Below are positions 1 to 25,450 of a stretch of DNA of 32,000 nucleotides, piece after piece. Below the pieces are notes generated by a model. It saw only the letters and a list, made by a program, of their open reading frames with translations, did no database searches and was not told the DNA's origin. The DNA comes from Edaphobacter aggregans (GTDB lineage Bacteria > Acidobacteriota > Terriglobia > Terriglobales > Acidobacteriaceae). The DNA lies in the NCBI RefSeq assembly GCF_003945235.1, contig NZ_RSDW01000001.1, forward strand, positions 1,110,001-1,142,000. Direction: 5' to 3'. The translations under genes were made by a program, and so were the position numbers. Numbering within the stretch: position 1 is the first letter of the stretch; the number at the start of each line of letters is the position of its first letter.

Positions 1-2237
1 ATGGGGTCGTTGGTCTCGGGGAGGAGGTTGAGACTGGCTATCAGGCCGACGGGGGTTCCCTTCGGGATGGGGCCGATCTGGATACCTTGATCGTTGAAGA
101 GCCAGTCGAAGGTACCAGAGAGCGGGCCGCGCAGGCGCTGGAGGAAGTCGGGCAAATAGCCGTTGGCTACGCGGAGATAGCTGGTGTCGGTGGTGCGGTC
201 GATGGTGCCGGGGACTTTGTCTCCGAGGACAGAATCTTTCTCGCGCTTCTCGGGCCAGAGGAGCTGTTCGATGGAGTCCTGGAAGGAGTCGAGGCGGGCT
301 TCGACGGAGGGACTGGCGTTGAATTTGCCCAGGCTGTTGTTGAGCAGGAATGGCGCGCTGGACCAGACGCTGATGAGCGACGGCGGGCGGGTGTAGCCGC
401 GGCCTCCGGCGGGCAGGACGTAGGGCTTGGGCTCGCCGGTGAAGGGGTCGTAGATGGTGGCGGTTCCTGCAGAAGGGAGATCCTTGTAGGACTGGGAGGA
501 GAAGTTGTCCCAGATGTTGTTGCCGAGGGCGTTGGTGGCTAGTGGGCTGCAGGCGTTGGTCTGGAGGAGCGTGACGGGGACGCGGAGTTCGGTGGAGAGA
601 TAGTTGCCCTGGGTGAAGTCGGGGGCGAGGACTATGTCGCGCATCTTCTTTTTGAACTCGTCGGTCTTGGTCCATTCCCAGTAGCGGTTCCAGCAGTCCA
701 TGTAGCCGGAGCCGGCGCAGGCTGCGGGATCGGCGTTAGCTGGCGGGGGGGGGAATTTGCTGGAGTGGCAGCGGGCGCAGCGCTCGGCGAAGGCGATCTT
801 GCCGCGTGTGAGGACGGCTTTGTCGGTAGTGAGGTGCGCGGCTCCGCCGGGGGCGTCCTTGAGGAGGTGGGGTTCGGTGCTCTTGAGGAAGAAGAGCGCC
901 ATGTCGACGGTCTGGGCTTCGGTGGCCTCGAAGTAGCTGGAGTTGGCTCGGGCTACAGAGACTGGGATCGGGGTGACTTCCTGGCCGCCTACGAGGGCGT
1001 TGAAGTGGAGGAGCCACTCTTCGCTGAAGGTGCCGATGTTAAGGTAGACGCGGTTGAGTGCGGCGAGTGCGCCTACGGAGTCGGAGCCGTCCTTGAGGAC
1101 GCGCGGGGTCTGGACGATGTCAGGAGGGGTGAAGAAGCGGGTGAGGTAGCCGGAGGGGACGTAGTTGTTGAACTGCTTGTTGTCTTTTTGGCCGTCGGCT
1201 AGTTTCTCTTTGCCCCAGACCAGCGCTTGATCGAGGCGAGGTTTGAGGGAGTAGACGGCGTTCATGGTGCGGGGATTGTTGATGTTGTCGGTGGAGATGA
1301 GCGAGGTGTCGAGGGTGCCGGGGCGCGAGGTGTGGAAGAGCTGGAAGACGTAGCTATCGGCAGAAGGGTTCCAGTCGAAGATGCGGTCGATCCAGAAGTA
1401 TTGTGCGCCTACGTTGGAACTGAGGTTCTCCCATTTGGGGGCATCGGGGTTGTCGGGGGGCTTCACGGGGTTGGGACCGACGTGGCAGAAGGCGCAGGAC
1501 ATGCCTACGCGATAGGGCCGGACGAGGTCCTTCGAGAGGTAGTACTTGCTGTCGGTGTAGTAGCGGACGGGGTCCCACTTTTTGGCTGCGGCTTCATCAA
1601 AGGCGGGGTTGGGGAAAAGGCGGAGGCCGACGATGCCGGTGCCGTATCCATAGAAGGAGCCCGCGTCGATGTTCTTGCCGCGTGCGCCAATTTTGACGCC
1701 GGGATATTTCTGCGCGTTTTCGAAGGGATCAGGCGGGCAGCTGGGGTCGCGCTGGTCGAGCCAGAGGCCGAAGCGCTTGGGGTCGGGCCCGGTGGCCTTG
1801 ATGTAGCAGGGTTCGTTGACGAGGCCGAGGTATTCCCAGCGGTTGTCGCGGCTGGCTTTGAGGGCAGGATGGCTGCCGTCGCCTGGGTAGGAGGAGATGG
1901 TTTTGAGGAAGTCAAGATTACCTACGCTGGTGACGGAGAGGACGTCCCAGAGGCGGTCATCGCCTGCCGTCCAGACGAGCCAGGTGTTGCGGCCCTTGAT
2001 CTCGTCAGCGGTGAGCTGGATGCCGCCATCCATGTCGTGGAAGTAGTCTTCGTCGGCGGCTGGGAAGGAGCTGGCTGGGCGGTTGGCGAGTTTGGCTTCG
2101 TCCAAGACCTTGCCCGGGAGGCCGGGAGTGGTGTTGCAGCCTTGTGGCAGAAGGGCCAGCGCGATGAGTACGGCGATGGCGGCAATGGCGCGAAGAGGCT
2201 TGAGTGCTGCGAGTCTGTACCAGGAGAACTTTTGCAT
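1..2237 (-). CDS. Di-heme c-type cytochrome family lipoprotein (start present, 3' end cut by window edge)
   Basis: It is absent from the ORF track because it runs off the left edge. The reverse-strand frame opens at ATG 2237-2235 (GAGGGA 7 nt upstream) and stays open for 745 codons down to position 3. The hand translation begins MQKFSWYRLAALKPLRAIAAIAVLIALALLPQGCNTT, which is a signal peptide plus a lipobox-like LPQGC (Cys34 at 2136-2138). There are two c-type heme motifs, CAFCH (1482-1496) and CARCH (765-779). The plus-strand ORFs listed across 87-2339 are Gly/Val/Glu-rich antisense shadows. Confidence 0.8.
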   Translation of the reverse strand, partial: MQKFSWYRLAALKPLRAIAAIAVLIALALLPQGCNTTPGLPGKVLDEAKLANRPASSFPAADEDYFHDMDGGIQLTADEIKGRNTWLVWTAGDDRLWDVLSVTSVGNLDFLKTISSYPGDGSHPALKASRDNRWEYLGLVNEPCYIKATGPDPKRFGLWLDQRDPSCPPDPFENAQKYPGVKIGARGKNIDAGSFYGYGTGIVGLRLFPNPAFDEAAAKKWDPVRYYTDSKYYLSKDLVRPYRVGMSCAFCHVGPNPVKPPDNPDAPKWENLSSNVGAQYFWIDRIFDWNPSADSYVFQLFHTSRPGTLDTSLISTDNINNPRTMNAVYSLKPRLDQALVWGKEKLADGQKDNKQFNNYVPSGYLTRFFTPPDIVQTPRVLKDGSDSVGALAALNRVYLNIGTFSEEWLLHFNALVGGQEVTPIPVSVARANSSYFEATEAQTVDMALFFLKSTEPHLLKDAPGGAAHLTTDKAVLTRGKIAFAERCARCHSSKFPPPPANADPAACAGSGYMDCWNRYWEWTKTDEFKKKMRDIVLAPDFTQGNYLSTELRVPVTLLQTNACSPLATNALGNNIWDNFSSQSYKDLPSAGTATIYDPFTGEPKPYVLPAGGRGYTRPPSLISVWSSAPFLLNNSLGKFNASPSVEARLDSFQDSIEQLLWPEKREKDSVLGDKVPGTIDRTTDTSYLRVANGYLPDFLQRLRGPLSGTFDWLFNDQGIQIGPIPKGTPVGLIASLNLLPETNDP

Positions 2238-2256
2238 CGTTGTCCCTCGTGTTCGA

Positions 2257-3759
2257 TCAAACTCTGGCGGCGCGTGCAAGATATCGTAACGCACGCAGGC
2301 CGGGCAGGAAAAAATATGCTCCGCCACGGACAGTGGTGAAGCGCGGCACGTCTTGAAGTTGATGTCGTACGGTCCCGGCGACTGGAATAGAGAACGTGCT
2401 GGCGGGGCAGCCGGCTATGGGTTCGCGGTTGCCTAGCAGCGGGTCAGTCTCGCTGTCGAGGCCGTCGAATTTGGTGTTGTTGAGCCACGCGGCCTGGATG
2501 AATTCGAATTGGCGGCCGATGTTGGCGTTGAGACAGACGAACTCAAGCCCGGTTGGAGGTTCGTTGGGCGGCGCGGGCTCGAGGCGCTCGGCGGGGGAGA
2601 GTTTCGGGCCATACTCGCGACCTCTTCGCAGCAGACGATGGAAGCGGGTGGAGGCGATGAGGTCTTCGCGGATGGTCTTCTGGCCAAAGCCCAGTATGCG
2701 GATGAGCTTTTCCAGAGGCTCGGATGATGTGCCCGGGGGAAAGTCTGCGTTGCGTGGATTTGCGCGGCGGATGTGTGCGCCGAATGGGCAGCGGAAGCCA
2801 TCTGGATCGTCGTCGAAGGTGAACTGGTTCTGCTGGATGTCTGTAAGGTCGGGGCCTACGCCGGGGATGCTTTGGCTTGATTCGGGAAGGAGCGAGTCGC
2901 CGGACATTTTGCGACCGACTATCTTCTCGGCAAGGTCCTGACGCTGTGTGGGATCGGAGTTCACCTGCTGGTCGATGAATCGCCAGAAGCCGCGGACGTC
3001 CTGCTCGATCTGGCGGATGACGAGGTAGGTTCCGTTGCGGCCAATGTCTTTGTAGCCGGGAGAGTCTTCGGCGTCGGGGAGGTCGGCGTTGGAGTCGACG
3101 ATCTTTGGGCGTCCTGTGTATTCGCCGTACTCGTTTGGATAGCCCAGGACGAACTCGCCGAGCATGGTGATGTTTTCGTAGGTGAGTTTGTCGCCGGAAG
3201 GGTTTTTTTTGCGGTCCCAGTCGACGGTGGGGGTGCTGACGCCGTCGACGAAGCCGAAGGGCTCGACGCCGCCCATGTCGGAGGTGGGCAGGCATTGGAG
3301 GAGGGTGAAGCCGGAGTGGGTAAGGCCGGAATCGATGGTGCTCTTCCAGGAGTCGAAGTGGCCGGGTAGTGCGTAGAGCATGGCGACCATGTCGGGCACG
3401 CCGGAGGGGCCGCCCCAGTACCAGTGCTCGGGTGCATTGGCGCCGATGTCGCCGAGGCGGCGGGAGCGGTTGTCTTCGCCTGTGATGCCGGAAAGGAACT
3501 CGGCGGAGAAGCCGTTGAGGATCTCTGGGGAGATGCCGAGGCGTTGCAGTCCTTGTTGTGTGAAGGCCAGTTGCAGGGCGCAGGTGGGAGGGGGGTTCTG
3601 GATTTCGGCGGTGGAGACGGGAGCGGTTTGCAGCCAACGGGCAGCGGCAGCGGGGTCGTCGATGCGCAACAGGAGGAAGCAGGCCTCGGTGAGCTTGGCG
3701 TAACCGAAGCGTAGGAGTCCCTGCATGTCGCGATAGTCGACGTTTGTGAGAGGAGCCAT
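2257..3759 (-). CDS. DyP-type (dye-decolorizing) heme peroxidase, large form (500 aa)
   Basis: The ATG at 3759 was verified. DyP hallmarks are present: FGFVDGVS (GxxDG, Asp172 codon 3244-3246), the proximal-His context CPFGAHIRRANPR (His329 codon 2773-2775), RLLRRGREYG, QFEFIQAAWLNN and the C-terminal GGAYFFLP. No Sec or Tat signal is visible (MAPLTNVDYRDMQGLL). Confidence 0.9.
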   Translation of the reverse strand: MAPLTNVDYRDMQGLLRFGYAKLTEACFLLLRIDDPAAAARWLQTAPVSTAEIQNPPPTCALQLAFTQQGLQRLGISPEILNGFSAEFLSGITGEDNRSRRLGDIGANAPEHWYWGGPSGVPDMVAMLYALPGHFDSWKSTIDSGLTHSGFTLLQCLPTSDMGGVEPFGFVDGVSTPTVDWDRKKNPSGDKLTYENITMLGEFVLGYPNEYGEYTGRPKIVDSNADLPDAEDSPGYKDIGRNGTYLVIRQIEQDVRGFWRFIDQQVNSDPTQRQDLAEKIVGRKMSGDSLLPESSQSIPGVGPDLTDIQQNQFTFDDDPDGFRCPFGAHIRRANPRNADFPPGTSSEPLEKLIRILGFGQKTIREDLIASTRFHRLLRRGREYGPKLSPAERLEPAPPNEPPTGLEFVCLNANIGRQFEFIQAAWLNNTKFDGLDSETDPLLGNREPIAGCPASTFSIPVAGTVRHQLQDVPRFTTVRGGAYFFLPGLRALRYLARAARV

Positions 3760-3824
3760 GCCCTTGTTCTCGCTTCCCTTCTGCGGATTTAATTCGCAAC
3801 AGCTAACTGCTATTCCTCGACGTT

Positions 3825-5117
3825 TTAGAAGATCTTGATCCAGTCGTCGAGTTCTGAATCTGAGATGGTGTTTTGTTCGAGCCCATTGCGTATGAGTGAG
3901 TTGCGTTGCATGTCGTAGGCCGTGACGCCGGGTGCTGCGGTATACCAGACCTGTGTGGGTAACTGGTGACGACGGAGGTAATCCTTGAAGGGCTGCTCGG
4001 CTCTGGCGCCATCGAGGATAAGCCAGTTGGTTTTGGGGTAGCCGAGGCCGTTGCTGAAGACGATGTTGAGCCCCCAGTAGACCTTGTTGATGAAGTCGCC
4101 GTTGTACATTTCGAGACTGCCGTCGTAGTTGCTGGAGAAGTAGACACGGGTCTTGTCGATAAACACCCAGCGCGCGAATTGAATGGTTTTTACGCGACCC
4201 AGGAAACCGTGGGTGAAGATGTGACGCGCGGTGTACTCGATCGCGAAGAGGACGGCGATGATTGTCCAGCGTCGGAAGGGGCCGGGCTTGATGCTGCCAT
4301 AGGCGCTGAACTGATTGATGATGATTCGATCCTCAAGCTCGTCAAGGGAATGGACGAGGGCTGTGGTGGGGCGGGGCGCTATGACCGGATCGCGCAGCTC
4401 CTTCATGCGGAGTTGGATGAGAAAGAAGGGCAGATAAAGGACGATGAGCGGCAATAAGAGGAACAGCACAAGGGGAATGCCGATGCAGTGTGCGAGGTTC
4501 TTGATCTGCCAGGACAAGGGTGTAGGTTCGGGCGGCGTGAGAGTGAGTCGTCCGGCGGCTTGTTCCTGTTTGACGAAGGTGCGCAGCTCGTTCCATATCT
4601 GCCGTGGGGTAGCGCCGGTTGAAGCGCGTTGATTGAGATACCACTTTATTGCCATCCACAAATCGTTCTCTTCGCGAACCTGAACGACGGTTCGGCCAAC
4701 CCAGTTGACGTAGTTTGCGGATGGAGGACGCTCGTTATCTTCCATCCAGCGCAGGAGGTCGGCGGTGGGCGTGAAGGATTCGCAGAAGGAGAAGATTTGA
4801 CGCAGGCCGGGTTCTGCTTTGGCGACGAGTTCGCGGCGGAGGGCGTCGGCTGGACCATCGAAGTCGCAGAGGAAGGCGAGAAAGTTGGTGGGTGGGGGCG
4901 GCGTGGCTCCGTAGACGCGGAGGTCTTCGCGGGTATCGTCTTCAAGGATGACGAAGCGGGCGAAGTGCAGCGTGGCGAACTTTTCGAATGGGACGAGCGT
5001 GTTGGCGGGATTGGCTACGCCCGGCTCAAGATTCATGGTCGCAAGAAGCTGTCGCAGCGCGGGCTCGCGGCTCGCTACGATCGGTGCAACGACCATGATG
5101 GTGGATTGTGGAGTCAT
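3825..5117 (-). CDS. Membrane protein of unknown function (430 aa)
   Basis: The ORF track gives 3825-5294, but its first 59 codons overlap the upstream gene. The ATG at 5117 lies 17 nt after that gene's stop (5135) and has GGGGA upstream. The N-terminal soluble part reads MTPQSTIMVVAPIV..LHFARFVILEDD..FLCDFDGPADALRREL. One long hydrophobic segment, CIGIPLVLFLLLPLIVLYLPFFLIQL, falls at about 4410-4487. The C-terminal part reads FARWVFIDKTRVYFSSNYDGSLEMYNGDFINKVYWGLNIVFSNGLGYP. I recognise no family. Confidence 0.75.
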   Translation of the reverse strand: MTPQSTIMVVAPIVASREPALRQLLATMNLEPGVANPANTLVPFEKFATLHFARFVILEDDTREDLRVYGATPPPPTNFLAFLCDFDGPADALRRELVAKAEPGLRQIFSFCESFTPTADLLRWMEDNERPPSANYVNWVGRTVVQVREENDLWMAIKWYLNQRASTGATPRQIWNELRTFVKQEQAAGRLTLTPPEPTPLSWQIKNLAHCIGIPLVLFLLLPLIVLYLPFFLIQLRMKELRDPVIAPRPTTALVHSLDELEDRIIINQFSAYGSIKPGPFRRWTIIAVLFAIEYTARHIFTHGFLGRVKTIQFARWVFIDKTRVYFSSNYDGSLEMYNGDFINKVYWGLNIVFSNGLGYPKTNWLILDGARAEQPFKDYLRRHQLPTQVWYTAAPGVTAYDMQRNSLIRNGLEQNTISDSELDDWIKIF

Positions 5118-5134
5118 CGTATCCCCGTAGACGA

Positions 5135-5566
5135 TCAGAACTCCAGCGCGAAGTGGATGAGCCGGTCCTTCTTCCAGTAGACGAGGCCGAGGTAGAGGCC
5201 TGGCGAGATGAGGCGAATTTCGTCGCGGACCCAGTGGGCGACCATCGATGTCTCGGAGTAGTCGAGGACGACGCATTCTTTGTTGTCGAACCAACTGGCT
5301 CCCTGATAGACCTTGGCCACGATGGCGCTGATCCCGAAGACGGAGATGCGGTTGCGCAGCACGCCGGCCTGAGCGTCAAAGGTCTTGCCCTGCCAGGTGA
5401 AGATGCTGATGAACGCTGCTGTCTCTTTGGTAAAGACGGTGCCGGGGGCCACAATGGCGGTGCCTTTGGCTTCACCGTTGGGGATGGGGCCGGGAGCACC
5501 GGATTTGAAACAGTCGTCGAGCTGAGCACTCGTCATCTTGAGTAGTTGAGAGACGTCGTAGGGCAT
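5135..5566 (-). CDS. Small soluble protein of unknown function, paralog A (143 aa)
   Basis: The ORF-track start at 5572 is GTG. The ATG at 5566 gives MPYDVSQLL, which aligns residue for residue with MAYTAQQLL of the paralog at 7845. AAGGTGG ends 2 nt before this ATG. There is no signal peptide or TM segment. Shared motifs are IPNGEA.GTAIVA, WQGKTFDA, AIVA.VY.G.S.FD.KEC.VLDYS.TS, RDEIRLI.PG.YLGLVYW and IHFAL.F. Confidence 0.8.
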   Translation of the reverse strand: MPYDVSQLLKMTSAQLDDCFKSGAPGPIPNGEAKGTAIVAPGTVFTKETAAFISIFTWQGKTFDAQAGVLRNRISVFGISAIVAKVYQGASWFDNKECVVLDYSETSMVAHWVRDEIRLISPGLYLGLVYWKKDRLIHFALEF

Positions 5567-5707
5567 CGCCACCTTCGTCTGGACGGATTTTTAGAGTGGA
5601 ACCAGCGGCTCGCAGCAGAAGCGGACTTCCGCTACTCGCGTCAGTGCAACACTTTCCGGGGCCCTGTTGATGATGAGATGAGACGATATCGCCGTTGACC
5701 GGGCTTG

Positions 5708-7621
5708 TCAACGAATGTTTGCAGCAAGATCAGCCTCGCGCGCGGCCTGGAGGATTACGTCGGCGGCCTTCTCGGCGATCATGTAAATGGCGCTGGTGAT
5801 GAAGAAGCCCGGGGTGCGGGGGAAGACGGAGGCATCGACGACGCGAAGGCCCTGCGTGCCATGAACGCGGAAGTCACTGGTGAGAACTCCGTTGTGTTCA
5901 CGGGGGCCAATGGCGCAGGTGCAGGAGGCGTGATGGCCCCAGGCTTGATTGCGGATGAAGGTCTTCAGGTCTTCGTCCGACTGGAGGTGATCGCCGGGCA
6001 GTTCTTCTTCGGCGATGAGCTTGTTGTCCTTGAAGTGCTGGGTGATCTTGCGGACGAAGCGTATGCCTTCGACTACGGAGGCGAGGTCTTCGCCCTGGGT
6101 GTCGCTGCCCTCTTCGAAGTAGTGGAAGTTGATGTCTGGCGTGTCGCGTGGGTCGGCGGAACGCAGGGTTACTTTGCCTGCGCGATTTTTGGTGTGAGCT
6201 TTGAGGACGACCCATGTCATGTAGTTCAGGTTTTCGGCGAAGAGCGCGGAGTAATTTGGGAAGTAGCCTCGGAAGAGTCCGAGAAGGCCGAGGCAGAAGA
6301 TGTCGGGAGTCTCGCGGTCAGGGAACGAGCGCTTGAATGCTGTAAGCACTCCTCCGTTGGTGATGTATGGGCCGCATCCGCGCTGCCATTGTTCAAATTG
6401 CGGGTCGTCCTGAGCGAAACGTGCGCCACGAAATATTCTCCACTGGCTGAAGTTCATTCGGTTGACGACACCGACTTCGTAGCGGTCCTGCAGGTTTGTG
6501 CCGACGCCCGGAAGATCGACGCGGAGAGGAATGCTGTGTTGGACGAGCTGCTCTGCCGGGCCTATGCCGGAGAGCATGAGGAGTTGCGGCGTATTGAATG
6601 TGCCTCCGGCGAGGATGACCTCGCGAGTCGCGTAGGCTGTGCGGAGCTCACCCGCCTGCGAACTGGGTGCGGCGTGGGCGCGGTAGAGGTGTTTGCCCTT
6701 GAGGTACTCGACGCCGATGGCTCGGTTATTGCCGTCGAACAGGACTCGGGTGGCGAGGGCATCGAGCTCGATTCGGAGGAGTTCTGGGTGCTTCGTGGCT
6801 ACTTCGAGAACGCGCTCGCGGGCGCTTGTGCGTGCGTGGTTGGAGGTGCTGAGAGGTATGTAGCGGACTCCACCTGCAGCTTCGCGAACGAGGCGCCAGT
6901 CGTTCGGATCGAAGGCTCCCTTCCACAGCCAGCGTAGATGGTCGCGTTTGCTGCCTGCGTTTTTGAAGGCCTCCCAAGCAGAGAGGATGATCATTCTTAC
7001 GAGGGGGTGATCGAGCAAAGCTGAGAGGGGTGTTGCGCGTTCCGTGGAGAGCCAGCCGCGCCATCCGTGTCGCGTGGGATTGAATCCAAGGGCGGCGAGG
7101 AAGCGATGGAATTTACGGTGATGACAGTTTTCCAGGAGTTCGAAGTATCGACGCATTTGGGGTGCGCGCCAGGATTCATCGCCGGTCAACTCAGCTATCT
7201 CGTCCCAGTCGGTGTTGTGTGGATAGACGATGATCATCGCGTTGTGCGCTGTGCAGCCGCCCAAGGTTCCTGCGCGTGGGTAGAGGACGCCGTCTACACG
7301 CTGACCATCGACTGTCTCGAAATATTTGGGGTCCTGACACTGTTGCTTATGGTTTCCATAATGACGAACATAGAAGTCCCACTTGATGGCGTCGTTTTCT
7401 GAAGCGAGGCCATGGAATACGGGTACATCGTACTCGTTTGGCATGCCTCCGCTGGGTGGGACGGGCTGCTGTTGCTGGGCGGTTCTGGGATCGCCGCCCG
7501 CTTCAAGCAGAAGGACGGTTCGTCCGGACTCGGCAAGACGAGCAGCCAGGATGCCGCCACCGGCCCCGGAGCCGACGACGATGTATTCGGCGGTTACGTT
7601 TTGCGGATCTGCGCTGCTCAT
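5708..7621 (-). CDS. GMC-family FAD-dependent oxidoreductase (long form, 637 aa from ATG 7621)
   Basis: The FAD-binding EYIVVGSGAGGGILAARLAESG has its GxGxxG starting at residue 17 from ATG 7621. The GMC C-terminal active-site region is AWGHHASCTCAIGP..FRVHGTQGLRVVDASVFP. The ORF-track start at 7741 is a TTG lying inside the TTGACA hexamer of the divergent promoter-like site, and it adds 40 featureless residues. No signal peptide is present. A large internal insertion (about RRYFELLENCHHRKF to SNHARTSARERV) makes it longer than the ~530-560 aa I recall as typical for the family. Confidence 0.88.
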   Translation of the reverse strand: MSSADPQNVTAEYIVVGSGAGGGILAARLAESGRTVLLLEAGGDPRTAQQQQPVPPSGGMPNEYDVPVFHGLASENDAIKWDFYVRHYGNHKQQCQDPKYFETVDGQRVDGVLYPRAGTLGGCTAHNAMIIVYPHNTDWDEIAELTGDESWRAPQMRRYFELLENCHHRKFHRFLAALGFNPTRHGWRGWLSTERATPLSALLDHPLVRMIILSAWEAFKNAGSKRDHLRWLWKGAFDPNDWRLVREAAGGVRYIPLSTSNHARTSARERVLEVATKHPELLRIELDALATRVLFDGNNRAIGVEYLKGKHLYRAHAAPSSQAGELRTAYATREVILAGGTFNTPQLLMLSGIGPAEQLVQHSIPLRVDLPGVGTNLQDRYEVGVVNRMNFSQWRIFRGARFAQDDPQFEQWQRGCGPYITNGGVLTAFKRSFPDRETPDIFCLGLLGLFRGYFPNYSALFAENLNYMTWVVLKAHTKNRAGKVTLRSADPRDTPDINFHYFEEGSDTQGEDLASVVEGIRFVRKITQHFKDNKLIAEEELPGDHLQSDEDLKTFIRNQAWGHHASCTCAIGPREHNGVLTSDFRVHGTQGLRVVDASVFPRTPGFFITSAIYMIAEKAADVILQAAREADLAANIR

Positions 7622-7734
7622 GCGCTCGTCGATTGCCCTCTCTTCATCAAGTGCATCCCATCGTAGCTGTAGTGGATGTCGGCTGACTATGGATGTTCGC
7701 ACAAGGTTTGACGTCGTGCGAGATGTATTCCTGA

Positions 7735-7763
7735 TTGACAAAAAGACGGGGCGCGGTCATAGT
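7735..7763 (+). promoter_or_regulatory. Sigma-70-like promoter candidate for the right-arm operon (TTGACA-N17-CATAGT)
   Basis: TTGACA sits at 7735-7740, followed by a 17-nt spacer (7741-7757) and CATAGT at 7758-7763. This is about 80 nt upstream of ATG 7845, which itself has GAGGAG (7831-7836) at 8-nt spacing. The call rests on the sequence pattern only. Confidence 0.35.
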
Positions 7764-7844
7764 TGGCGGTATTCTCACCGGGCCCCCACACAACATCGAC
7801 TACGCTACTACGACCGATACGGTGGCGTATGAGGAGACCGAACT

Positions 7845-8285
7845 ATGGCGTACACCGCACAACAACTTTTGGCGATGCCCGAAAAACAGCTCGACGATCT
7901 TTTCTCCGCGAGTCCGGCAGGCGATATTCCTAATGGCGAAGCGGACGGGACGGCGATTGTCGCTTCGGACACGCCGTTTTCTTCCGAGATCGCTGCGATA
8001 GTCAATATCTTTAACTGGCAGGGCAAGACCTTCGACGCAGCTCATGGAACGCTTACGAACCGCATCCTTGCCTTCGGAGTGAATGCGATTGTGGCCCAGG
8101 TTTACAAGGGCACGAGCTTGTTTGATGGGAAAGAATGCATTGTGCTGGATTACTCGAAGACCTCGATTCTGGCCAAACATATTCGCGACGAGATTCGCCT
8201 GATTGGACCTGGGCAGTATCTGGGACTTGTGTACTGGGACACGAAGAAAACAATTCACTTTGCGCTGCAGTTTCCTGTCGCATGA
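7845..8285 (+). CDS. Small soluble protein of unknown function, paralog B (146 aa)
   Basis: It starts at an ATG with a strong SD (GAGGAG, 8 nt upstream). A gapless alignment to the 5135-5566 product gives 89 identities over 143 positions (hand count). There is no signal peptide or TM segment. Confidence 0.85.
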   Translation: MAYTAQQLLAMPEKQLDDLFSASPAGDIPNGEADGTAIVASDTPFSSEIAAIVNIFNWQGKTFDAAHGTLTNRILAFGVNAIVAQVYKGTSLFDGKECIVLDYSKTSILAKHIRDEIRLIGPGQYLGLVYWDTKKTIHFALQFPVA

Positions 8286-8321
8286 GCCGACGAGGTAAGT
8301 GGTTTTCATCTTCATCTCTGA

Positions 8322-9563
8322 ATGGATGGAAGAGCCTTGACTTCAAACCCTGATCGTCCGATACCGAAGGCTAATACTGGCTCCGCGTTTCTGAACTTTT
8401 TCTCTGATGCATCGATGGCCTTTGTGCATCTGGAGCGGCGGTTCGATCCGATCTTTCGGCCGGCATTCGACGCGTTGCTTCGCGATCCGATCGCAGCGCT
8501 CGTAACCGCTGTGATAAACGCGAAGCGCCCGAATGATGGATTGAAGATCGCCGAAGAAAAGCTGATGCCGAACGAAGAGGCTTACCTCGATTCGATCATC
8601 AACAGCTTTATCGCGCAGATGCGAGGGTTGTGGAAGCCGGGGATGTTCGAACGCGGGGGGAACACGAAGACTCATGGTATCGTGCGTGCCGAGTTTATCG
8701 TTCACGATGGCCTTGCGCCGGAGTTGCGTCATGGCATCTATGCAGAGCCACGGACGTATCCGGCATGGGTGCGCTTCTCTGGCCCGGGCCCTTATATAAC
8801 GCCCGATATCGACGACGTCGGTTTTATGAGCATCAGCATCAAGCTGATGGGCGTACCTGGGCCGAAGCTGATGGAGGAGGAGAAGTTTACGCAGGATATG
8901 TTCGGAGTCTCGACACCGACCTTTGTGACGCCCGACACCGAGGCCAATGCGCAGTTGCAGATCAACAGCCTGAAGAACGCGACGATCTTCCATTTTCTGA
9001 ACTTGCATCATCCGCATGTGTTGGATCTGATTATGCAGGGGTTGTGGACCAAGACGCAGAGCAGTCCGTTTGAGGCTCCCTACTTTAGCTGCGTACCTTA
9101 TTTACTTGGAGAGGGGCAGGCGATGCAGTACTCTGTGTGGCCGAGATCGGCTCGGAAGACACCTATACCGCGCCTTCCGTTCCGGCCCCCTGACGACTAT
9201 CTGCGCAATGCGATGGTTGCGACTCTCGCAAATGAAGACGTCGAATTTGATATTCGCCTGCAACTGCAGACGGAACCGTTTTTGATGCCGATTGAGAACA
9301 ATGGTGTGCTGTGGCCGGAGAAACTCTCGCCGCGGCGATCGGCGGCCACGCTGCGAATTCCTCGGCAGACGTTCAACTCGCCGGCGCAGATGGATTTTGC
9401 GCGGAAGCTCTCTTACAATCCTTGGCACTGCATTGCAGAGCATCGTCCCCTGGGGAATCAGAGCCGCGCTCGACGCCGAATGTACGACACGCTTTCAAGG
9501 TTCAGACATGAGATGAACGGCGTTCCGCTTTATGAGCCAACGGGAGATGAGGTCTTCGACTAG
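8322..9563 (+). CDS. Catalase-related heme protein (small catalase-fold clade, y4iL-like / allene-oxide-synthase-like)
   Basis: The ORF is 413 aa. Catalase-fold markers are the distal-His context GGNTKTHGIVRAEFIV (His118 codon 8673-8675), AWVRFSG and the proximal-Tyr context SRARRRMYDTLSRFR (Tyr388 codon 9483-9485). It is too short and too divergent to be a canonical catalase. The start is uncertain (ATG 8322 or ATG 8415, neither with a clear SD). Confidence 0.75.
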   Translation: MDGRALTSNPDRPIPKANTGSAFLNFFSDASMAFVHLERRFDPIFRPAFDALLRDPIAALVTAVINAKRPNDGLKIAEEKLMPNEEAYLDSIINSFIAQMRGLWKPGMFERGGNTKTHGIVRAEFIVHDGLAPELRHGIYAEPRTYPAWVRFSGPGPYITPDIDDVGFMSISIKLMGVPGPKLMEEEKFTQDMFGVSTPTFVTPDTEANAQLQINSLKNATIFHFLNLHHPHVLDLIMQGLWTKTQSSPFEAPYFSCVPYLLGEGQAMQYSVWPRSARKTPIPRLPFRPPDDYLRNAMVATLANEDVEFDIRLQLQTEPFLMPIENNGVLWPEKLSPRRSAATLRIPRQTFNSPAQMDFARKLSYNPWHCIAEHRPLGNQSRARRRMYDTLSRFRHEMNGVPLYEPTGDEVFD

Positions 9564-9580
9564 GGAAAGGTTACGGTGCT

Positions 9581-10762
9581 ATGGACTCCGACTCGCGTAA
9601 ACCTGCGCTTCAACTCACCGAAGGAGGTCCCCTCTATCGTATTGAAAAACGATTGAAGTTTATTCGGGAGAGATCACCGCAGGTGCTTACGGTGGCCGGC
9701 TTGTCGATCCTTGTGACGTGGGTGCCGCTGTTCCTCCTGTCCGCGGCGCAAGGTTCGGCATACCACACAACAACCGTAATGGTCCCGTTTCTGCGTGATT
9801 TTGCGACATATACGCGGTTTCTTATCGCGATGCCCATCCTTATCCTGGCCGAGACATTCCTTGGACCACGGTTGGCCAAGGCTGCGGAGTTCTTTGTAAC
9901 GTCAGGACTTGTTCTGGAGAAGGACTACACGCGCTTCGATGCAGCGGTGGAGCGCGGGCTTCGACTGCGAGATTCCACAGTAGCGGAACTGCTTCTCGTT
10001 GCCGGAAGTTATGCGATCTCTTTGACTGCGCTACATAGCATGGCTGTTCATGCTGCGACGTGGTCCGCGAGTTATTCGGGGGCGGGCTTCCGTTTGACGT
10101 GGGCTGGATGGTGGCTCGTGGGATTCTGTGCGCCGTTCCTCAATTTTTTGTTACTGCGCTGGGTATGGCGGCTCTTTCTATGGGGCCAGTTTCTATGGAG
10201 CATGAACAAACTCGATCTGCAATTATTTCCACCACACCCGGACGAGTCGGGAGGATTGGGATTTATTGGGAGAGCGCAGCAGTTTTTTGGGATCATCCTG
10301 TTTGGCTATTCAGCAGCCACGGCTGGCGTTCTGGCCGATACAGTGATCTATGACAAGGTACCGTTGCAACACTTTGCAGGGCCGCTGGTGGCCTACGTTG
10401 TCATCGCGGTAGGAATCGTCATCGCTCCCCTTCTGGTGTTCGCTGTACGGATGCACGAGACAAAGATCCACGGCCTCTATCAATACAGTTCGTTGGCCAC
10501 CAGTTACACTTCGGCGTTTCATCACAGGTGGATCAACAAAGATCCGGAGGCAAGCGAACCTCTGCTTGGGACCTCCGACATCCAGTCGCTCGCCGATTTA
10601 GGTAACAGCTTCGGCTTTATCAAGGGCATGGATGATCTTCCTATGAATCCGCGCACTCCTATCCATCTTGCTCTTGCCTGTCTGATACCGATGGCGCCGT
10701 TGTTGCTGATCGTCATACCGTTGAAGGAGATGGTGAAGCTACTCTTCAAGGCCGTGCTTTAG
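9581..10762 (+). CDS. Polytopic membrane protein of unknown function (393 aa, about 7 hydrophobic segments)
   Basis: The ATG lies 17 nt after the upstream stop, with GGGAAAGG upstream. Hydrophobic stretches include VLTVAGLSILVTWVPLFLLSAA, YTRFLIAMPILILAETFL, VAELLLVAGSYAISLTAL, WAGWWLVGFCAPFLNFLLL, FFGIILFGYSAATAGVLA, LVAYVVIAVGIVIAPLLVFAV and IHLALACLIPMAPLLLIVIPL. I recognise no family. Confidence 0.75.
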   Translation: MDSDSRKPALQLTEGGPLYRIEKRLKFIRERSPQVLTVAGLSILVTWVPLFLLSAAQGSAYHTTTVMVPFLRDFATYTRFLIAMPILILAETFLGPRLAKAAEFFVTSGLVLEKDYTRFDAAVERGLRLRDSTVAELLLVAGSYAISLTALHSMAVHAATWSASYSGAGFRLTWAGWWLVGFCAPFLNFLLLRWVWRLFLWGQFLWSMNKLDLQLFPPHPDESGGLGFIGRAQQFFGIILFGYSAATAGVLADTVIYDKVPLQHFAGPLVAYVVIAVGIVIAPLLVFAVRMHETKIHGLYQYSSLATSYTSAFHHRWINKDPEASEPLLGTSDIQSLADLGNSFGFIKGMDDLPMNPRTPIHLALACLIPMAPLLLIVIPLKEMVKLLFKAVL

Positions 10763-11730
10763 GTCGGTAGGGTGGCTGAGTTCTGGAGAGCCTGCTTCAT
10801 GCCCGCCCAGCTTTGACGGGAGGATTCCTCCGGTGTTGAGGCGCCGTGCCAGTGGGTTTCGAGACTAACGGCATCGCGGTATCCAACCTTCGCCAAGTCG
10901 CGGAACTGCGCAGTCCAGTCGATGAAGCCTGTGCCTACGGGAGCCCATGCGATCTTGCCGTCACTACCCTTGACTGCGTTCTTGACGTGGCAGTGGCGAA
11001 TGCGATGTTTGGGAAGTAGCTGCCAAGCCGCGGGATAGGCATCGAGTTCGCCGCGCATAACGGCGTTGGCGGGATCCCAGTTGAGCGCAAGATGAGGCGA
11101 TGGAACGGCGGCGAGAGTTCTTACGGCTTCTCGTCCAGTGGCCGTGTTGCACTCGAACTCGTTTTCGAGAACCAGAAGGATTCCTTGTTTCCCACAGACG
11201 GTTGCGGCATCGAGCAGCTTCGCGTCGATTGCTGCGCGATAAGGCTTCTGATCTTCGACACGCCAGAAGTCGAAGCAGCGGACTTTGTCTGTCTTGAACT
11301 GTTTGGCGAGACTGATGCTGCGTGCGAGAACTTCGTCCTGCTGCTTGAAGGTCTCGACAGCCGTCATCGAGTGATCCGGCTTGGTGTGAGACGTTCGAGG
11401 GGCGTCGGGCCAGTCGACCTTGAAGAGCGGGCTGGCGATGTCGGTTACGGCCAGGTTGTATTTCGCAAGGATCTTTTGCGCGTCGGCGATTTCGGAGTCG
11501 CTAAGGTCCTGAAGGCTCTTGTTCCACATGGCGCGGAGCTCCACCCACTGCAGGCCGAACTCCTTCGATGCAACCGAACAGGCGTGATCAAAGTCCTGGG
11601 ATATTTCATCCGTGATCACTGCTACTTTGAAGCCCTGCTTCGCCACCATTGCAAGCATAGGGGATGCCACATACGCCGCTGCAGCTATCCCGGCACCGGC
11701 AAGAAAACCACGTCGCGAAAAACCTTCCAT
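10759..11730 (-). CDS. Tat-exported xylose-isomerase-like TIM-barrel protein (sugar phosphate isomerase/epimerase family)
   Basis: The ATG at 11730 has GGGAAGAGGAAA upstream. The N terminus carries a twin-arginine signal, MEGFSRRGFLAGAGIAAAAYVASP. The body has typical family features (LVLENEFECNTATG, HCHVKN, SLETHW). Its stop overlaps the convergent upstream gene by 4 nt. Confidence 0.85.
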   Translation of the reverse strand: MEGFSRRGFLAGAGIAAAAYVASPMLAMVAKQGFKVAVITDEISQDFDHACSVASKEFGLQWVELRAMWNKSLQDLSDSEIADAQKILAKYNLAVTDIASPLFKVDWPDAPRTSHTKPDHSMTAVETFKQQDEVLARSISLAKQFKTDKVRCFDFWRVEDQKPYRAAIDAKLLDAATVCGKQGILLVLENEFECNTATGREAVRTLAAVPSPHLALNWDPANAVMRGELDAYPAAWQLLPKHRIRHCHVKNAVKGSDGKIAWAPVGTGFIDWTAQFRDLAKVGYRDAVSLETHWHGASTPEESSRQSWAGMKQALQNSATLPT

Positions 11731-11786
11731 TACAATTTCCTCTTCCCTTTCAAAAACCTGACAACAGTTGACGTCCTACACTGACA

Positions 11787-11815
11787 GACCGGCTACCTAA
11801 CGAGAGTAGCCGGCC
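11787..11815 (-). terminator. Stem-loop after the TonB-dependent receptor gene (no U-tract)
   Basis: CCGGCTAC (11789-11796) pairs with GTAGCCGG (11806-11813) around a 9-nt loop, with a possible extra closing G-C pair. The hairpin lies about 20 nt downstream of the receptor stop on the minus strand. No T-run follows, so terminator function is uncertain. Confidence 0.35.
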
Positions 11816-11834
11816 CGATCAACTGCAGTTTACT

Positions 11835-14800
11835 TTAGAACAAAATCCTCGCCGACGCCTGCAAACTGCGTCCGCCACCGACTCCATTCACGCTGCCCTG
11901 TCCACTACCCAGAGTGCTCGTGACCTGTCCGAAGCTGGTCGCTGAACAGCAGTTGTTGCTCGTCGGATTCGCGAACTGCGGTGTATTGCTCAACTGGAAC
12001 GCATCGAACCGAACCTCCGCAGAGGCTTCCCGGACGATTGGGAAGCTTTTGAAGATGGAGAGGTTGTCCTGAATGTAACCGGGCCCTCGGAACTGATTTC
12101 TTCCTGTATTGCCCACACCGACGTTCTGCGGTGTGCAGGCACCCGACGTTGGGCACCCACTCGGAACGGAGAACGCAGTCGGATCAAACCAGTGATTTGC
12201 TGAGCCGACCCCGTGGGTTACATGGTAGGTACCCGTCAGGTTTCCTGTTTGGGTCGTTCCGGGAGTGTTGAGATTTGCCCCGTTTGTGGCAACAGTAAAC
12301 GGCTGACCGGAAAGCACGGAGATGATGCCCGCAAGCTTCCATCCACCGAGGGTCAGAGCTCCGATTCCCGAGTTCAGAAGGTTGTGGCCGCGCCCGAACG
12401 GAAGCTCATAGGTAAAGCTCTGTTCGAAGTTCAACGCTCGGTCGTAGTCGTTGGGAGCGTAGTTCCTCCGTTGATCGACAAAGAACGACAAACCACCATC
12501 ATCGCCGGCGGTGTATCCCAACCCCTTGCCCCACGTAAACGCCGACGTCAAAGCAAGGCCCCTGGTGAAGCGCTTGTTTAACTGGGCTTGCATCGACTGG
12601 TAGTTCGATGAGAATCCGTAAAAGATAACGTTGGTCGCAGCTGTGCGGCTATAGGGAGCCACATTTTCCGGATCCGATGCCGCGCCTCCGCCATACGTGC
12701 TCGGCAGATTCGAGTTCTGATTGGTTGGAATACGAACGCCGTGATTGGCGACATACGCTATCTGCATCGACATGCTATACGGCAGGGCTTGCTGCACTGC
12801 AACATTCCACGACACTGCATAAGGGTTTTTGAAATTTAGGGGAATCTGATAAAACGTCTGAGTTTTCAGCGCCTGAGTCACTGGGATGATTCCGTTAGAG
12901 GGAATTACGACGGGGATTGGAGCCGGGAAGCCAGCGCCGAAAGTCGCAGGCGTGACCCCATCCGGGCCAACTGCCGGAGTGAAAGCACTCGATCCGACTG
13001 GTCCGTAACTGTTGTTCGCTCTGACCGGGAAGTTATAGGCGTAGCTATTATCCGCATAGGGCATATAGCTCATGCCAAAGCCTGCGCGAACGACAGTGTT
13101 ATCCGTCACACGATAGGAAACCCCGGTGCGTGGAGCGAAATATCGGTATTGCGTCTGCATGCCCAGGTTGCTGGGGTTGCCGCCGACGCCGGCGATGACA
13201 AGGTTGTGATTGATCGGATCGTAGTTGGAGAAACCACCAGCCTTTCTCGGGGTCGCTGGAGGATAAAACTCCCAGCGCACGCCAAGATCGACAGTCAGCT
13301 TCGGAGTTGCCTGCCACTTGTCACTTGCGTATGCGAAGAACCACCACTGCCGGTATGCAGGGAAGTATGTATTCAAATCTCGGCCCACCGAACTCGGCAG
13401 GTCAAACAGGAAGCTGGCGACGTCGTTTGCAATGTTTGTGGTTCCGCGTTTATCCGAAGTCTGCACGTCGGAAAAGGTAAACGCGCCGCGTGGGCTGAAG
13501 GTTTGGAACTGCAAAAGGTCATCCCGAACTCGGCGAAGGTCAACTCCGGCCTTCACAGTGTGGTTATGGACAACCTTGGTCCAGTTGTTGACGAAATCGA
13601 TATTGGACTCGCCGCGAATCCATGGGACCGAAGCCGAATATCCGATCAGGGTCCCTGTGAATCCTCCGTTGATCGTCAGTCCCACCTGTCCGCTGGTGTA
13701 CTGGTCGATATTGACCCCCGGAACTCCGAGCGTCGTAGCATCATTCGAGCCGTAGTCGCTGGGCTCTGCATTGTTGCGCAGATGGGCGACACCAACACGC
13801 ACCTCGGTGAACAATGTTGGAGAAAAGACGTGAGTGTAATTTACGCCTGTGCTGTATGACGTTTGCGCGCCTGTTCCTTCGAAGCCACCACCTGCAGGTC
13901 CGCCAAGAAACGCGCCAAAAGCCGGCGCCTGGTACGTATTCACACGCTGGAAGCTGTAACGTCCACTAATGTTGTTCCTTTCATTCAGCGTGAAGTCGAT
14001 CTTTGTGTCGAAACTGTCCGTCGACTTTGTGAATGGGAGAACCGTCGTGTAGTTGTTGGCGGGATTCGACATCGGCAGAGTAGCGTTCAGCTTCCCGTAT
14101 TGCTGCGCCGCCGCGTTAAGCTTCTGCAGGATAGCCAGCGAGACTCCGTTGACACGGTTGGCCGGAATCATGTTGTTCGCGAAAGGTGTCCGCGGACCGG
14201 TTGCAGTGCCGTCACCAGTGGCCGGATCGAATACCTGCCCTGCCTTAAAACCATTCGCATTCACCGCCCCGAGCGTCGAACTGAGATCGATAAAGCCCTG
14301 TGCATTCGGTGTGTAATATCGCGGATCGGGAATCGTAAAGGTGCTGGCGACCGACTCATGGTCCGAGGAGTGCACATAATCGCCAAAGAAGAACAGCTTG
14401 TCCCGGAAGATCGGCCCGCCTATCGAACCGCCAAAGTTGTTGTACGAGAGATGCCCAAGCGGACCTCCGAAGTACGAACGCGCATTCACAGCATTGTTCT
14501 GGATATACTCAAATGCTGTTCCGTGAAACGCATTAGTGCCCGACTTCAGCGTCACGTTTGTCACGCCGCCCATCGCACGCCCAAGCTCCGCCTCAAAGTT
14601 GTTCGTTGAGATATCGACCGACTGGATTGCATCCGCTGGCGGAATGATGATCTGTAACAGCCCGGTGCGCTCGTCGTCGTCAACACCTTCGATCTGGTAA
14701 AGATTGCCCATGCGCGGCAGCCCATTCACCTCCGTCTGCAACGAACTCTGCGCGTTGAAGAACTGGGAATGCTGAAAGACCGCCGGCGCCGTTCCCGGCA

Positions 14801-15305
14801 CCAGGTTCAGCAAGGACTGGAAGTTGCGGTTCGTACCGAGGGGTAGCTCAGCGACCTCGCGCGCTTCTATCTTGGTGCTGATGTCGGCGCGGTCGGTCTG
14901 GAGCATGGGTGGCGCCGTCGTGACGAGAACGGTCTCGGTGACGCTGCCGGTAACCATATCGACATCGACACGAGTGGAGGAGTTGCTGAGCACGTCGATA
15001 TTCTGATGAGTCTCTTTCTTGAAGCCCATGGCTTCGACGATGACGGTATACGTACCGGGCTTTATATCTGGAAGGGTGTAGTTGCCGCTGTCATTGGTGA
15101 TGGTTTGATAGACGACGCTTGTCGCCGTCTCGGTCGCGGTAACCTTGGCCTTTGCGATGGTTGCCCCACTGGGGTCCGATACCGTACCAAGCAGAGTTGC
15201 GCTTACAGCCTGACCAAAAAGGAGAGAGGAAGAACTCAAAAGAAGAAGGATAACGACATAGCCGAAGAACTTGCGTGCGAACACAGACAACCTCCAAGTC
15301 GTCAT
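11835..15305 (-). CDS. TonB-dependent outer-membrane receptor with N-terminal carboxypeptidase-regulatory-like domain (1156 aa)
   Basis: The signal peptide is MTTWRLSVFARKFFGYVVILLLLSSSSLLFGQA. It is followed by LLGTVSDPSGATIAKAKVTATE..NDSGNYTLPDIKPGTYTVIVEAMGFK (CarboxypepD_reg-like), then a plug and a long beta-barrel. The C-terminal residue is aromatic (..ARILF). Confidence 0.9.
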   Translation of the reverse strand: MTTWRLSVFARKFFGYVVILLLLSSSSLLFGQAVSATLLGTVSDPSGATIAKAKVTATETATSVVYQTITNDSGNYTLPDIKPGTYTVIVEAMGFKKETHQNIDVLSNSSTRVDVDMVTGSVTETVLVTTAPPMLQTDRADISTKIEAREVAELPLGTNRNFQSLLNLVPGTAPAVFQHSQFFNAQSSLQTEVNGLPRMGNLYQIEGVDDDERTGLLQIIIPPADAIQSVDISTNNFEAELGRAMGGVTNVTLKSGTNAFHGTAFEYIQNNAVNARSYFGGPLGHLSYNNFGGSIGGPIFRDKLFFFGDYVHSSDHESVASTFTIPDPRYYTPNAQGFIDLSSTLGAVNANGFKAGQVFDPATGDGTATGPRTPFANNMIPANRVNGVSLAILQKLNAAAQQYGKLNATLPMSNPANNYTTVLPFTKSTDSFDTKIDFTLNERNNISGRYSFQRVNTYQAPAFGAFLGGPAGGGFEGTGAQTSYSTGVNYTHVFSPTLFTEVRVGVAHLRNNAEPSDYGSNDATTLGVPGVNIDQYTSGQVGLTINGGFTGTLIGYSASVPWIRGESNIDFVNNWTKVVHNHTVKAGVDLRRVRDDLLQFQTFSPRGAFTFSDVQTSDKRGTTNIANDVASFLFDLPSSVGRDLNTYFPAYRQWWFFAYASDKWQATPKLTVDLGVRWEFYPPATPRKAGGFSNYDPINHNLVIAGVGGNPSNLGMQTQYRYFAPRTGVSYRVTDNTVVRAGFGMSYMPYADNSYAYNFPVRANNSYGPVGSSAFTPAVGPDGVTPATFGAGFPAPIPVVIPSNGIIPVTQALKTQTFYQIPLNFKNPYAVSWNVAVQQALPYSMSMQIAYVANHGVRIPTNQNSNLPSTYGGGAASDPENVAPYSRTAATNVIFYGFSSNYQSMQAQLNKRFTRGLALTSAFTWGKGLGYTAGDDGGLSFFVDQRRNYAPNDYDRALNFEQSFTYELPFGRGHNLLNSGIGALTLGGWKLAGIISVLSGQPFTVATNGANLNTPGTTQTGNLTGTYHVTHGVGSANHWFDPTAFSVPSGCPTSGACTPQNVGVGNTGRNQFRGPGYIQDNLSIFKSFPIVREASAEVRFDAFQLSNTPQFANPTSNNCCSATSFGQVTSTLGSGQGSVNGVGGGRSLQASARILF

Positions 15306-15381
15306 GAAAAGACATGGCGCTAAAAAACTTATTGTTTGAAGAGCGAACGAACATTACAGATAACGTTCCCATTAGTCAACA

Positions 15382-15391
15382 GATTTAAATC
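15382..15391. promoter_or_regulatory. Perfect 10-bp palindrome GATTTAAATC in the divergent intergenic region
   Basis: It was read directly from the sequence. It lies in the AT-rich 165-bp spacer between the receptor gene (minus) and the second TIM-barrel gene (plus). Function is unknown. Confidence 0.2.
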
Positions 15392-15470
15392 GACTGCCAA
15401 TGAAACGAATGATTGCGGTTACCTCTGGGAAAACAATTGAAGTGGACGACCACATACGGAGGTCGGTAGT

Positions 15471-16340: not shown

Positions 16341-16346
16341 CCAGCC

Positions 16347-25421: not shown

Positions 25422-25450
25422 AGCTGACTCCTCCGTCCAGCCGCGAAACT

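Follow-up and report, generated by a model that had tools for sequence, protein, structure and literature searches.

The left end of the 32,000-nucleotide (nt) stretch of the Edaphobacter aggregans genome analysed here (contig NZ_RSDW01000001.1, positions 1,110,001 to 1,142,000; hereafter the window) encodes, at positions 1-9563, a conserved cassette of six components, one of which, the gene for a small protein, has been duplicated in this species. On the minus strand lie the genes for a GMC-family flavin adenine dinucleotide (FAD) flavoprotein of 637 residues (5708-7621), a 143-residue small protein of a new family that is predicted to form a beta-barrel (5135-5566; 100% identical to EDE15_0941), a 430-residue membrane protein of a second new family (3825-5117), a DyP-type heme peroxidase of 500 residues (2257-3759) and a di-heme c-type cytochrome (1-2237), whose gene is cut by the window edge so that 745 of its 832 residues are present. 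Across a divergent intergenic region (7622-7844) that separates the GMC gene from a second small-protein gene, the plus strand encodes this 146-residue paralogue (7845-8285) and a catalase-related heme protein of 413 residues (8322-9563), followed, outside the conserved cassette, by a 393-residue protein with several transmembrane (TM) helices (9581-10762). The original prediction had described these eight open reading frames (ORFs) as one divergent locus with two arms; all coordinates and strands were as given there, and the intergenic gaps are exactly 141, 17, 65 and 19 nt in the left arm and 36 and 17 nt in the right arm.

We used the small protein as an anchor for the comparison of loci. 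At least 582 stretches encoding its relatives were confirmed among species-representative genomes; its homologues were aligned, 80 loci were taken from these genomes, and their content was scored by tblastn with the window proteins in the 48 loci that had at least 8 kilobases (kb) of flank on each side. All six core families were found together in 37 of these 48 well-flanked loci, with the GMC protein present in 44, the cytochrome, the 430-residue protein and DyP in 43 each, and the catalase-like protein in 40. Because 37 of 48 loci hold the six core families, the grouping of these genes is far beyond chance. An independent anchor, the catalase-like protein in metagenome contigs, gave 13 loci with at least 7 kb of flank on each side: the small protein, the 430-residue protein and DyP were encoded in 13/13, the cytochrome and the GMC protein in 9/13 each, and the whole set in 8/13. 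The synteny is thus conserved, and the genes form a real functional unit, as had been proposed from the window alone.

Homology searches returned thousands of related proteins, and the hosts of the cassette are soil and peat bacteria belonging to the Acidobacteriota, the Alpha- and Betaproteobacteria, the Solirubrobacterales, the Binatia and other groups, including Acetobacteraceae, Burkholderiales (Variovorax, Methylibium, Scleromatobacter), Vicinamibacteria and Bryobacterales. In Variovorax, Methylibium and Scleromatobacter the cassette is a single co-linear operon in the order cytochrome, GMC, small protein, 430-residue protein, DyP and catalase-like protein. Cassettes of the Chthoniobacterales carry more divergent copies of the cytochrome (38-40% identity). 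Clustering of ORFs across the loci found no other family widely shared beside the cassette, and when 70 flanking genes, drawn from about half of the genome loci, were assigned to Pfam families, no regulator, transporter or other family recurred more than twice.

The comparison changes the size and shape of the unit. Its core consists of six genes and not of eight, because neither the 393-residue gene nor the second small paralogue is conserved together with the cassette. The 393-residue protein was found in 3/80 genome loci and 1/80 metagenome loci. The two small proteins are indeed paralogous, as had been noticed, with 62% identity between them, and the second copy is a lineage-specific duplicate found only in close Edaphobacter relatives (four genomes and two metagenome contigs); a single small-protein gene often lies directly before the catalase-like gene, as in five of the loci. 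The earlier view that both arms repeat one layout is not upheld either, since the arms have different gene orders and unrelated membrane proteins, and since the 393-residue gene and second small copy are specific to the lineage. The two-arm picture is the result of local rearrangement and duplication.

The strongest evidence that the parts of the cassette work together comes from gene fusions, of which we found four kinds. In two Blastocatellia loci a single chain runs from a small-protein domain, 54-57% identical to the small protein, through a lone TM helix into a di-heme cytochrome domain that is about 480 residues long. In three other loci a catalase-like domain stands between a four-TM segment and a further TM helix, after which comes a cytochrome domain of the same type, all in one chain. 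A profile search with the 430-residue family returned 3031 representatives at E<=1e-3, and among the top 150 of these, in which fusions were sought, at least five join the 430-residue protein to DyP and two join the small protein to the 430-residue protein. The orders of domains in these chains agree with the gene order small protein, 430-residue protein, DyP. The four kinds of fusion argue for a single membrane-associated assembly; because they exist, we consider the cassette parts to be linked functionally, and probably also physically, at the cytoplasmic membrane. One further chain (692 residues) carries an endonuclease/exonuclease/phosphatase-family domain (Pfam, 1.5e-8) N-terminal to the 430-residue protein.

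The fusions also bear on topology. When the sequences were read by eye, without a predictor, none of the GMC, DyP, catalase-like and small proteins showed a signal peptide (the N-terminus of the small protein reads MPYDVSQLLK), in agreement with the original prediction, in which this cytoplasmic-looking set contrasted with an exported cytochrome. Covalent heme attachment in c-type cytochromes occurs outside the cytoplasmic membrane. In the fusion proteins, therefore, the TM helix would have the small and catalase-like domains on its cytoplasmic side, a placement supported by the positive charges that precede this helix. The split between compartments is conserved and is kept even within single chains, and it is therefore a conserved design feature.

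The 430-residue protein begins with an alpha/beta domain, continues with a hydrophobic segment of 29 residues that contains proline, and ends in a C-terminal domain of high conservation. In its AlphaFold2 model the N-domain is confident and the C-domain poor; Foldseek gave no match to this model at E<=0.001, with weak ferredoxin-like/ABM matches to the N-domain, and the family profile found nothing meaningful in the PDB. No Pfam or NCBIfam family matched this protein, the 393-residue protein or the small proteins. We also considered the 430-residue protein as a degenerate DyP/ferredoxin-like repeat, given its 'HFARF/HFARW' motifs, and rejected this on a profile-profile probability of 0.2% against the DyP alignment. 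Its gene is always directly upstream of the DyP gene in the loci examined. Because its C-terminus is joined to signal-less DyP in some fusions and its N-terminus to the small protein in others, we infer that both ends would be cytoplasmic, with the hydrophobic segment forming a hairpin or a pair of passes. The suggestion that the membrane proteins bridge the compartments has accordingly to be revised for this family, which the fusions show to be better read as the membrane partner of DyP.

The assignment of DyP itself is solid. TIGR01413 matches the protein at 4e-18, with 65.8 bits under a cutoff of 100.5, and DyPs in the PDB match at 1.7e-42 to 1e-14, the closest being the Deinococcus radiodurans enzyme (8re3). 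Among 16 orthologues the Asp of the FGFVDG motif (D172) and the His of GAHIRR (H329) are invariant, as are R378, R379 and R381 of an RRGR stretch, which may include the distal Arg. The enzyme thus keeps the catalytic Asp and the proximal His, and heme binding and peroxidase activity are predicted.

The small protein is the most strongly conserved member of the cassette and its apparent hub, with 64-72% identity across phyla, above most of the cassette's enzymes. Its AlphaFold2 model (predicted local distance difference test score 87) is a barrel with N-terminal helices. The sole significant Foldseek match was 4mve, Tcur_1030, at E 7e-4 (probability 1.0, TM-score 0.64, 145/148 columns); the sequence profile of the family gave nothing meaningful against the PDB. 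One UniRef homologue bears the name GXWXG/DUF4334. This assignment was rejected, as 0/20 family members match either Pfam model at E values up to 10.

The cytochrome carries two heme motifs, CAFCH and CARCH, 239 residues apart, behind an N-terminal signal or anchor, and two such motifs were present in every full-length homologue examined. It had been called an exported lipoprotein. The two CxxCH motifs and the signal or anchor stand, and the lipoprotein part is less secure: because the lipobox of the window protein (LLPQGC) is non-canonical, and because some of its orthologues have a canonical lipobox and others a TM anchor that is not cleaved, 'membrane-tethered and exported' is the safer label. 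The protein is a distant relative of the RoxA-type di-heme 'cytochrome c peroxidase' (CCP) family. Clearer members of that family are short di-heme paralogues, some of them fused to small or catalase-like domains and others encoded beside such fusion genes or beside pairs of cytochrome and small-protein genes. These short paralogues pass the NCBIfam model NF040606 with 163-196 bits, keep the MauG-type motif PY(L/F)HNGSVP intact, and match the RoxA, RoxB and RoxC models at 1e-13 to 1e-25 and the RoxA structure 4b2n at 2.5e-7. The window-type cytochrome aligns weakly with them, over 28 columns round the second heme motif with hhalign (probability 93%) and with 23 bits in hmmsearch; its own profile gave nothing meaningful against the PDB, with RoxA at E 1.9. 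Reported heme-motif spacings are 245 residues in PA2077, 235 in PA2078 and 199 in RoxA (PMC4496055), so that the spacing of 239 in the window protein resembles that of the two Pseudomonas enzymes more than that of RoxA.

Further cytochrome genes were seen near some of the cassettes. A second di-heme cytochrome of about 726 residues, 41-44% identical to the window type, adjoins the main cytochrome gene in six loci of the Alloacidobacterium type (for example L012:1694-3871) and has a better NF040606 score (7e-15 for a 43%-identical paralogue). Elsewhere, either near the cassette or apart from it, a cytochrome-like gene (27-29% identity) lies beside a gene for a protein of about 200 residues that is 22-28% identical to the small protein (L009:1778-4925, L028:14792-18045, L029:5057-7947, L066:17290-20171). 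These distant paralogous pairs suggest that the cytochrome and the barrel are an older two-gene module. Beyond window position 1, on the same strand and after a gap of 64 nt from the cytochrome gene, lie genes for an OmpR-type response regulator and a histidine kinase (L081:15892-18008), a candidate local regulator of the cassette that was not seen beside it in other lineages.

The 413-residue protein matched no Pfam or NCBIfam family, and as a single sequence it reached E 0.94. A profile of 17 homologues, however, finds the coral allene oxide synthase (AOS) structures 1u5u (1e-6, over one 60-residue stretch) and 3dy5 (1.6e-5) ahead of the mycobacterial catalase-related protein 3e4w (0.037) and the catalase 4b7f (0.038), in keeping with its assignment as catalase-related, nearest to the mini-catalases of the AOS type; RefSeq names it 'catalase family protein'. 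The proximal motif R-x-x-x-Y (R384-R-R-M-Y388) is present in 53/53 homologues, and R-x-G-N-T-K-T-[H/Y/Q]-G (R-G-G-N-T-K-T-H-G in the window) in 48/53. In the alignment, an Asn occupies, in 48/53 readable homologues, the column of the distal catalytic His found in catalases (R-V-V-H-A-K-G) and in coral AOS (T-H). Two alphaproteobacterial loci have paralogues about 30% identical to the window type in its place (L005:13463-14347, L006:8090-9067), and these carry a His (F-H-V-K-S-H) at the Asn position of the cassette proteins.

The GMC assignment is equally firm (Pfam GMC_oxred_C, PF05199, 7e-30; GMC_oxred_N, PF00732, 7e-20). The N-terminal FAD-binding motif VVGSGAGGG (GxGxxG) is present, and in the PDB the protein matches generic alcohol and choline oxidases best; in choline oxidase the catalytic residues are His466 and Asn510. 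The catalytic His (WGHHAS) is kept in 56/56 orthologues. At the position of Asn510, the 56 orthologues have A, V, T or S within PGFFI[AVTS], and never N or H, and the active site is atypical and unusually hydrophobic.

Of the two hypotheses put forward with the original prediction, organic-hydroperoxide or oxylipin-type chemistry on a lipid is the better fit, and our preferred, if tentative, reading is that the cassette oxygenates a membrane-associated unsaturated lipid, either fatty acyl or isoprenoid in nature, and that it then also processes the organic hydroperoxide formed in this step. The cytochrome would make or handle a lipid hydroperoxide at the outer face of the membrane, a role proposed because it is a distant relative of the RoxA-type enzymes and has precedents in the rubber dioxygenase RoxA and, according to published reports, in PA2077/PA2078. 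At the inner face the small barrel would take up the hydrophobic intermediate; DyP, held to the membrane by the 430-residue protein, and the AOS-like protein would reduce or rearrange the hydroperoxide; and the GMC enzyme would oxidise the hydroxyl product. By analogy, such a sequence is consistent with the nearest characterised relatives of the cytochrome family: RoxA and, as published reports have it, PA2077/PA2078 use substrates that are hydrophobic and unsaturated. Coral AOS and the mycobacterial catalase-related protein act on organic or fatty-acid hydroperoxides rather than on hydrogen peroxide (H2O2), and coral AOS is the best match to the catalase-like profile, which may point the same way. 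The reading would also suit a barrel hub whose weak, non-significant structural neighbours in the modelled fold are lipid carriers, an assembly that sits on the membrane, the unusually hydrophobic GMC active site, and the patatin-like phospholipase genes found in 20/167 loci, often adjacent and co-oriented, including in loci with the cytochrome and small-protein genes alone.

Several observations weigh against this proposal. The link of the window cytochrome to the RoxA-type enzymes is remote: its full-length, 97%-identical orthologue matches NF040606 at 4e-8 with 32.8 bits, under a cutoff of 150, and the MauG-type motif is degenerate (APFLLNNSLG instead of PYLHNGSVP). Its likeness to PA2077 and PA2078 lies in the spacing of heme motifs and not in a direct sequence comparison. 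The distal His of catalases and coral AOS appears to be absent from the catalase-like protein, the chemistry of which may differ. The sole significant structural match of the barrel, 4mve, is without known function, and the Foldseek matches to binders of fatty acids, retinoids and bile acids (FABP, CRABP and BABP; E 0.13-1, TM-score 0.2-0.4) are not significant. Patatin, in 12% of loci, is an accessory and not part of the core; no lipoxygenase, desaturase or fatty-acid transporter is conserved near the cassette; and the proposal offers no path for the intermediate across the membrane.

The family assignments of the GMC protein, DyP, the catalase-like protein and the cytochrome would also suit a cycle of H2O2 or a defence against oxidative stress, in which H2O2 made by a GMC oxidase is removed on the two sides of the membrane by DyP, the catalase-like protein and a di-heme peroxidase of the periplasm. 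We regard this as unlikely, as an Asn at the distal-His position makes true catalase activity improbable, H2O2 made in the cytoplasm only to be destroyed would serve no evident purpose, and neither the two most conserved members, the barrel and the 430-residue protein, nor the fusions would have a role; nor did an OxyR- or PerR-type regulator recur among the 70 flanking ORFs sampled from about half of the genome loci. A variant of the same idea, in which the H2O2 of a glycoside-oxidising GMC enzyme is managed for the adjacent glycan locus, had been the other hypothesis offered from the window alone. A sugar locus does lie next door (10759-18764), but the adjacency is not conserved: xylose-isomerase-like genes were found near the cassette in 1/48 genome and 2/13 metagenome loci, all from close relatives, and among the 70 sampled flanking genes no glycoside-hydrolase family occurred more than once. 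With the sugar locus unlinked to the cassette in other genomes, this proposal is very improbable, and the least probable of those considered here.

A pairing of DyP with a GMC enzyme is also the classical ligninolytic couple of fungi, and since the hosts are soil and peat bacteria, a GMC aryl-alcohol oxidase could be imagined to feed H2O2 to DyP for the oxidation of aromatic polymers or phenolics such as lignin and humic matter. This account is improbable. Neither enzyme has an export signal, and the membrane protein to which DyP is fused is in turn found joined to a signal-less domain of cytoplasmic type; the GMC protein is without the second catalytic residue (His or Asn) typical of aryl-alcohol oxidases, and aromatic-catabolism genes did not recur nearby in either the ORF clustering or the flank census. 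Just as improbable is a flavoprotein-cytochrome c dehydrogenase complex, in which electrons taken from a substrate by the GMC protein would reach cytochrome c with the aid of the small subunit. Three loci do hold the cytochrome, GMC and small-protein genes without the other three, as do four loci with shorter flanks. However, the small protein carries no twin-arginine translocation (Tat) signal and the GMC protein has no export route, whereas the cytochrome is periplasmic, of RoxA type, and has two heme motifs and not three; in the fusions, moreover, the small domain lies opposite the cytochrome domain across the TM helix.

The lipid reading can be carried one step further, with less assurance. 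It is tempting to speculate that the cassette encodes an undescribed membrane-spanning assembly in which the barrel hub and the 430-residue protein couple a periplasmic RoxA-type di-heme oxygenase to DyP in the cytoplasm, to a catalase-fold enzyme of the Asn type and to an atypical GMC enzyme, and which would carry out a new bacterial pathway of lipid oxygenation and hydroperoxide rearrangement, for oxylipin formation or for membrane-lipid peroxide repair; we hold this to be doubtful at present. To our knowledge, the natural substrates of bacterial DyPs and catalase-fold proteins are largely unknown. If the cassette does handle lipid hydroperoxides, DyPs and mini-catalases would gain a physiological role, and bacterial oxylipin chemistry would extend far beyond Pseudomonas. 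Regardless of the substrate, four redox enzymes of families usually studied singly are fixed partners here, the two uncharacterised families that join them are more conserved than the enzymes themselves, and the cassette occurs commonly among bacteria of soil and peat.

The two arms of the window locus differ in composition. The guanine-plus-cytosine content is 0.58-0.64 in the left arm (1-7000) and 0.535-0.555 in the right arm (8000-10000), against 0.51-0.59 in most of the remaining window, and the GC skew is strongly positive across the left arm; the contrast is a possible sign of different origin or of strand bias. Presumably, the intergenic region at 7622-7844 holds the promoters of both arms. 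One sigma-70-like match lies within it, at 7735-7763 on the plus strand, and is given as a position and not as evidence, since the counts in the promoter and terminator scan were not above shuffled expectation.

To the right of the cassette, homologues of the 393-residue protein (1637 were found) adjoin DUF2252 genes in Granulicella and at another E. aggregans locus (L085:6001-8630, L086:4517-7179), which suggests that this protein and DUF2252 belong to a separate, likewise uncharacterised two-gene unit. The sugar-utilisation neighbourhood that follows encodes a xylose-isomerase-like TIM-barrel protein with a Tat signal, a second xylose-isomerase-like protein, a GH31 glycosidase and a TonB-type outer-membrane protein of 1156 residues (CarboxypepD_reg/outer-membrane beta-barrel). 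Next come a copper-type P-type ATPase with YHS and HMBD domains (18919-21267), two ORFs with no Pfam match (21328-22062 and 22074-23600), a HAMP/dCache histidine kinase with an OmpR-type regulator (23610-26134), and a 1569-residue protein with beta-helix, MBG and Ig-like (Big_3_5) domains (26491-31200), which is probably a surface or adhesin-like protein.

That no system with this gene set has been described, as the original prediction had supposed, agrees with our searches of the literature and of PADLOC. Public annotation calls the small and 430-residue proteins 'hypothetical'; our searches of the literature, among them those on DUF4334, on GXWXG/Tcur_1030 and on combinations of DyP, GMC and catalase, found no relevant description of the gene set or of the two new families; and PADLOC returned no anti-phage defence match for seven of the proteins. 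Tcur_1030 of Thermomonospora curvata, a structural-genomics protein, is like the small protein in fold according to the model of the latter, but shares 16% identity with it, and sequence profiles do not connect the two.

Among the systems with which the cassette can be compared, PA2077 and PA2078 of Pseudomonas come closest on the periplasmic side. According to published reports they are fatty-acid di-heme enzymes that make and convert a fatty-acid hydroperoxide. Like the window cytochrome, they belong to the RoxA/CCP superfamily, are exported c-type proteins with two hemes, and have their heme motifs far apart (235-245 residues, 239 here). The Pseudomonas system, however, consists of two paralogous periplasmic enzymes only, without DyP, GMC protein, catalase-like protein, barrel or membrane partner, and the window cytochrome is about 200 residues longer, membrane-tethered and degenerate in its MauG-type motif. 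The rubber dioxygenases RoxA, RoxB and RoxC (4b2n), oxygenases acting on a hydrophobic unsaturated substrate, resemble the short fused paralogues, yet the scores of all short paralogues are far under the cutoffs of the Rox models (900-1000 bits), and the Rox enzymes are secreted, soluble and stand-alone, unlike the cassette cytochrome. With the coral AOS-lipoxygenase fusion (1u5u, 3dy5) and the mycobacterial protein 3e4w, the 413-residue protein shares the proximal R-x-x-x-Y heme-ligand motif; it differs from them in the Asn that appears in place of the distal His, in the absence of a lipoxygenase partner and in about 100 additional N-terminal residues. The fungal couple of DyP and GMC aryl-alcohol oxidase sets the same two superfamilies side by side, and a logic of peroxide producer and consumer is possible in both, but the fungal enzymes are secreted, whereas their counterparts in the cassette are signal-less; in addition, DyP is linked here to a membrane protein, and the second His/Asn is missing from the GMC protein. 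The three-subunit FAD dehydrogenases of acetic acid bacteria and Burkholderia, finally, combine a GMC subunit with a tri-heme cytochrome and a small subunit bearing a Tat signal, and the cassette has neither the tri-heme protein nor this signal. Because the cassette departs from the defining features of each known system considered, it is new at the system level, with a function that is at present predicted from sequence.

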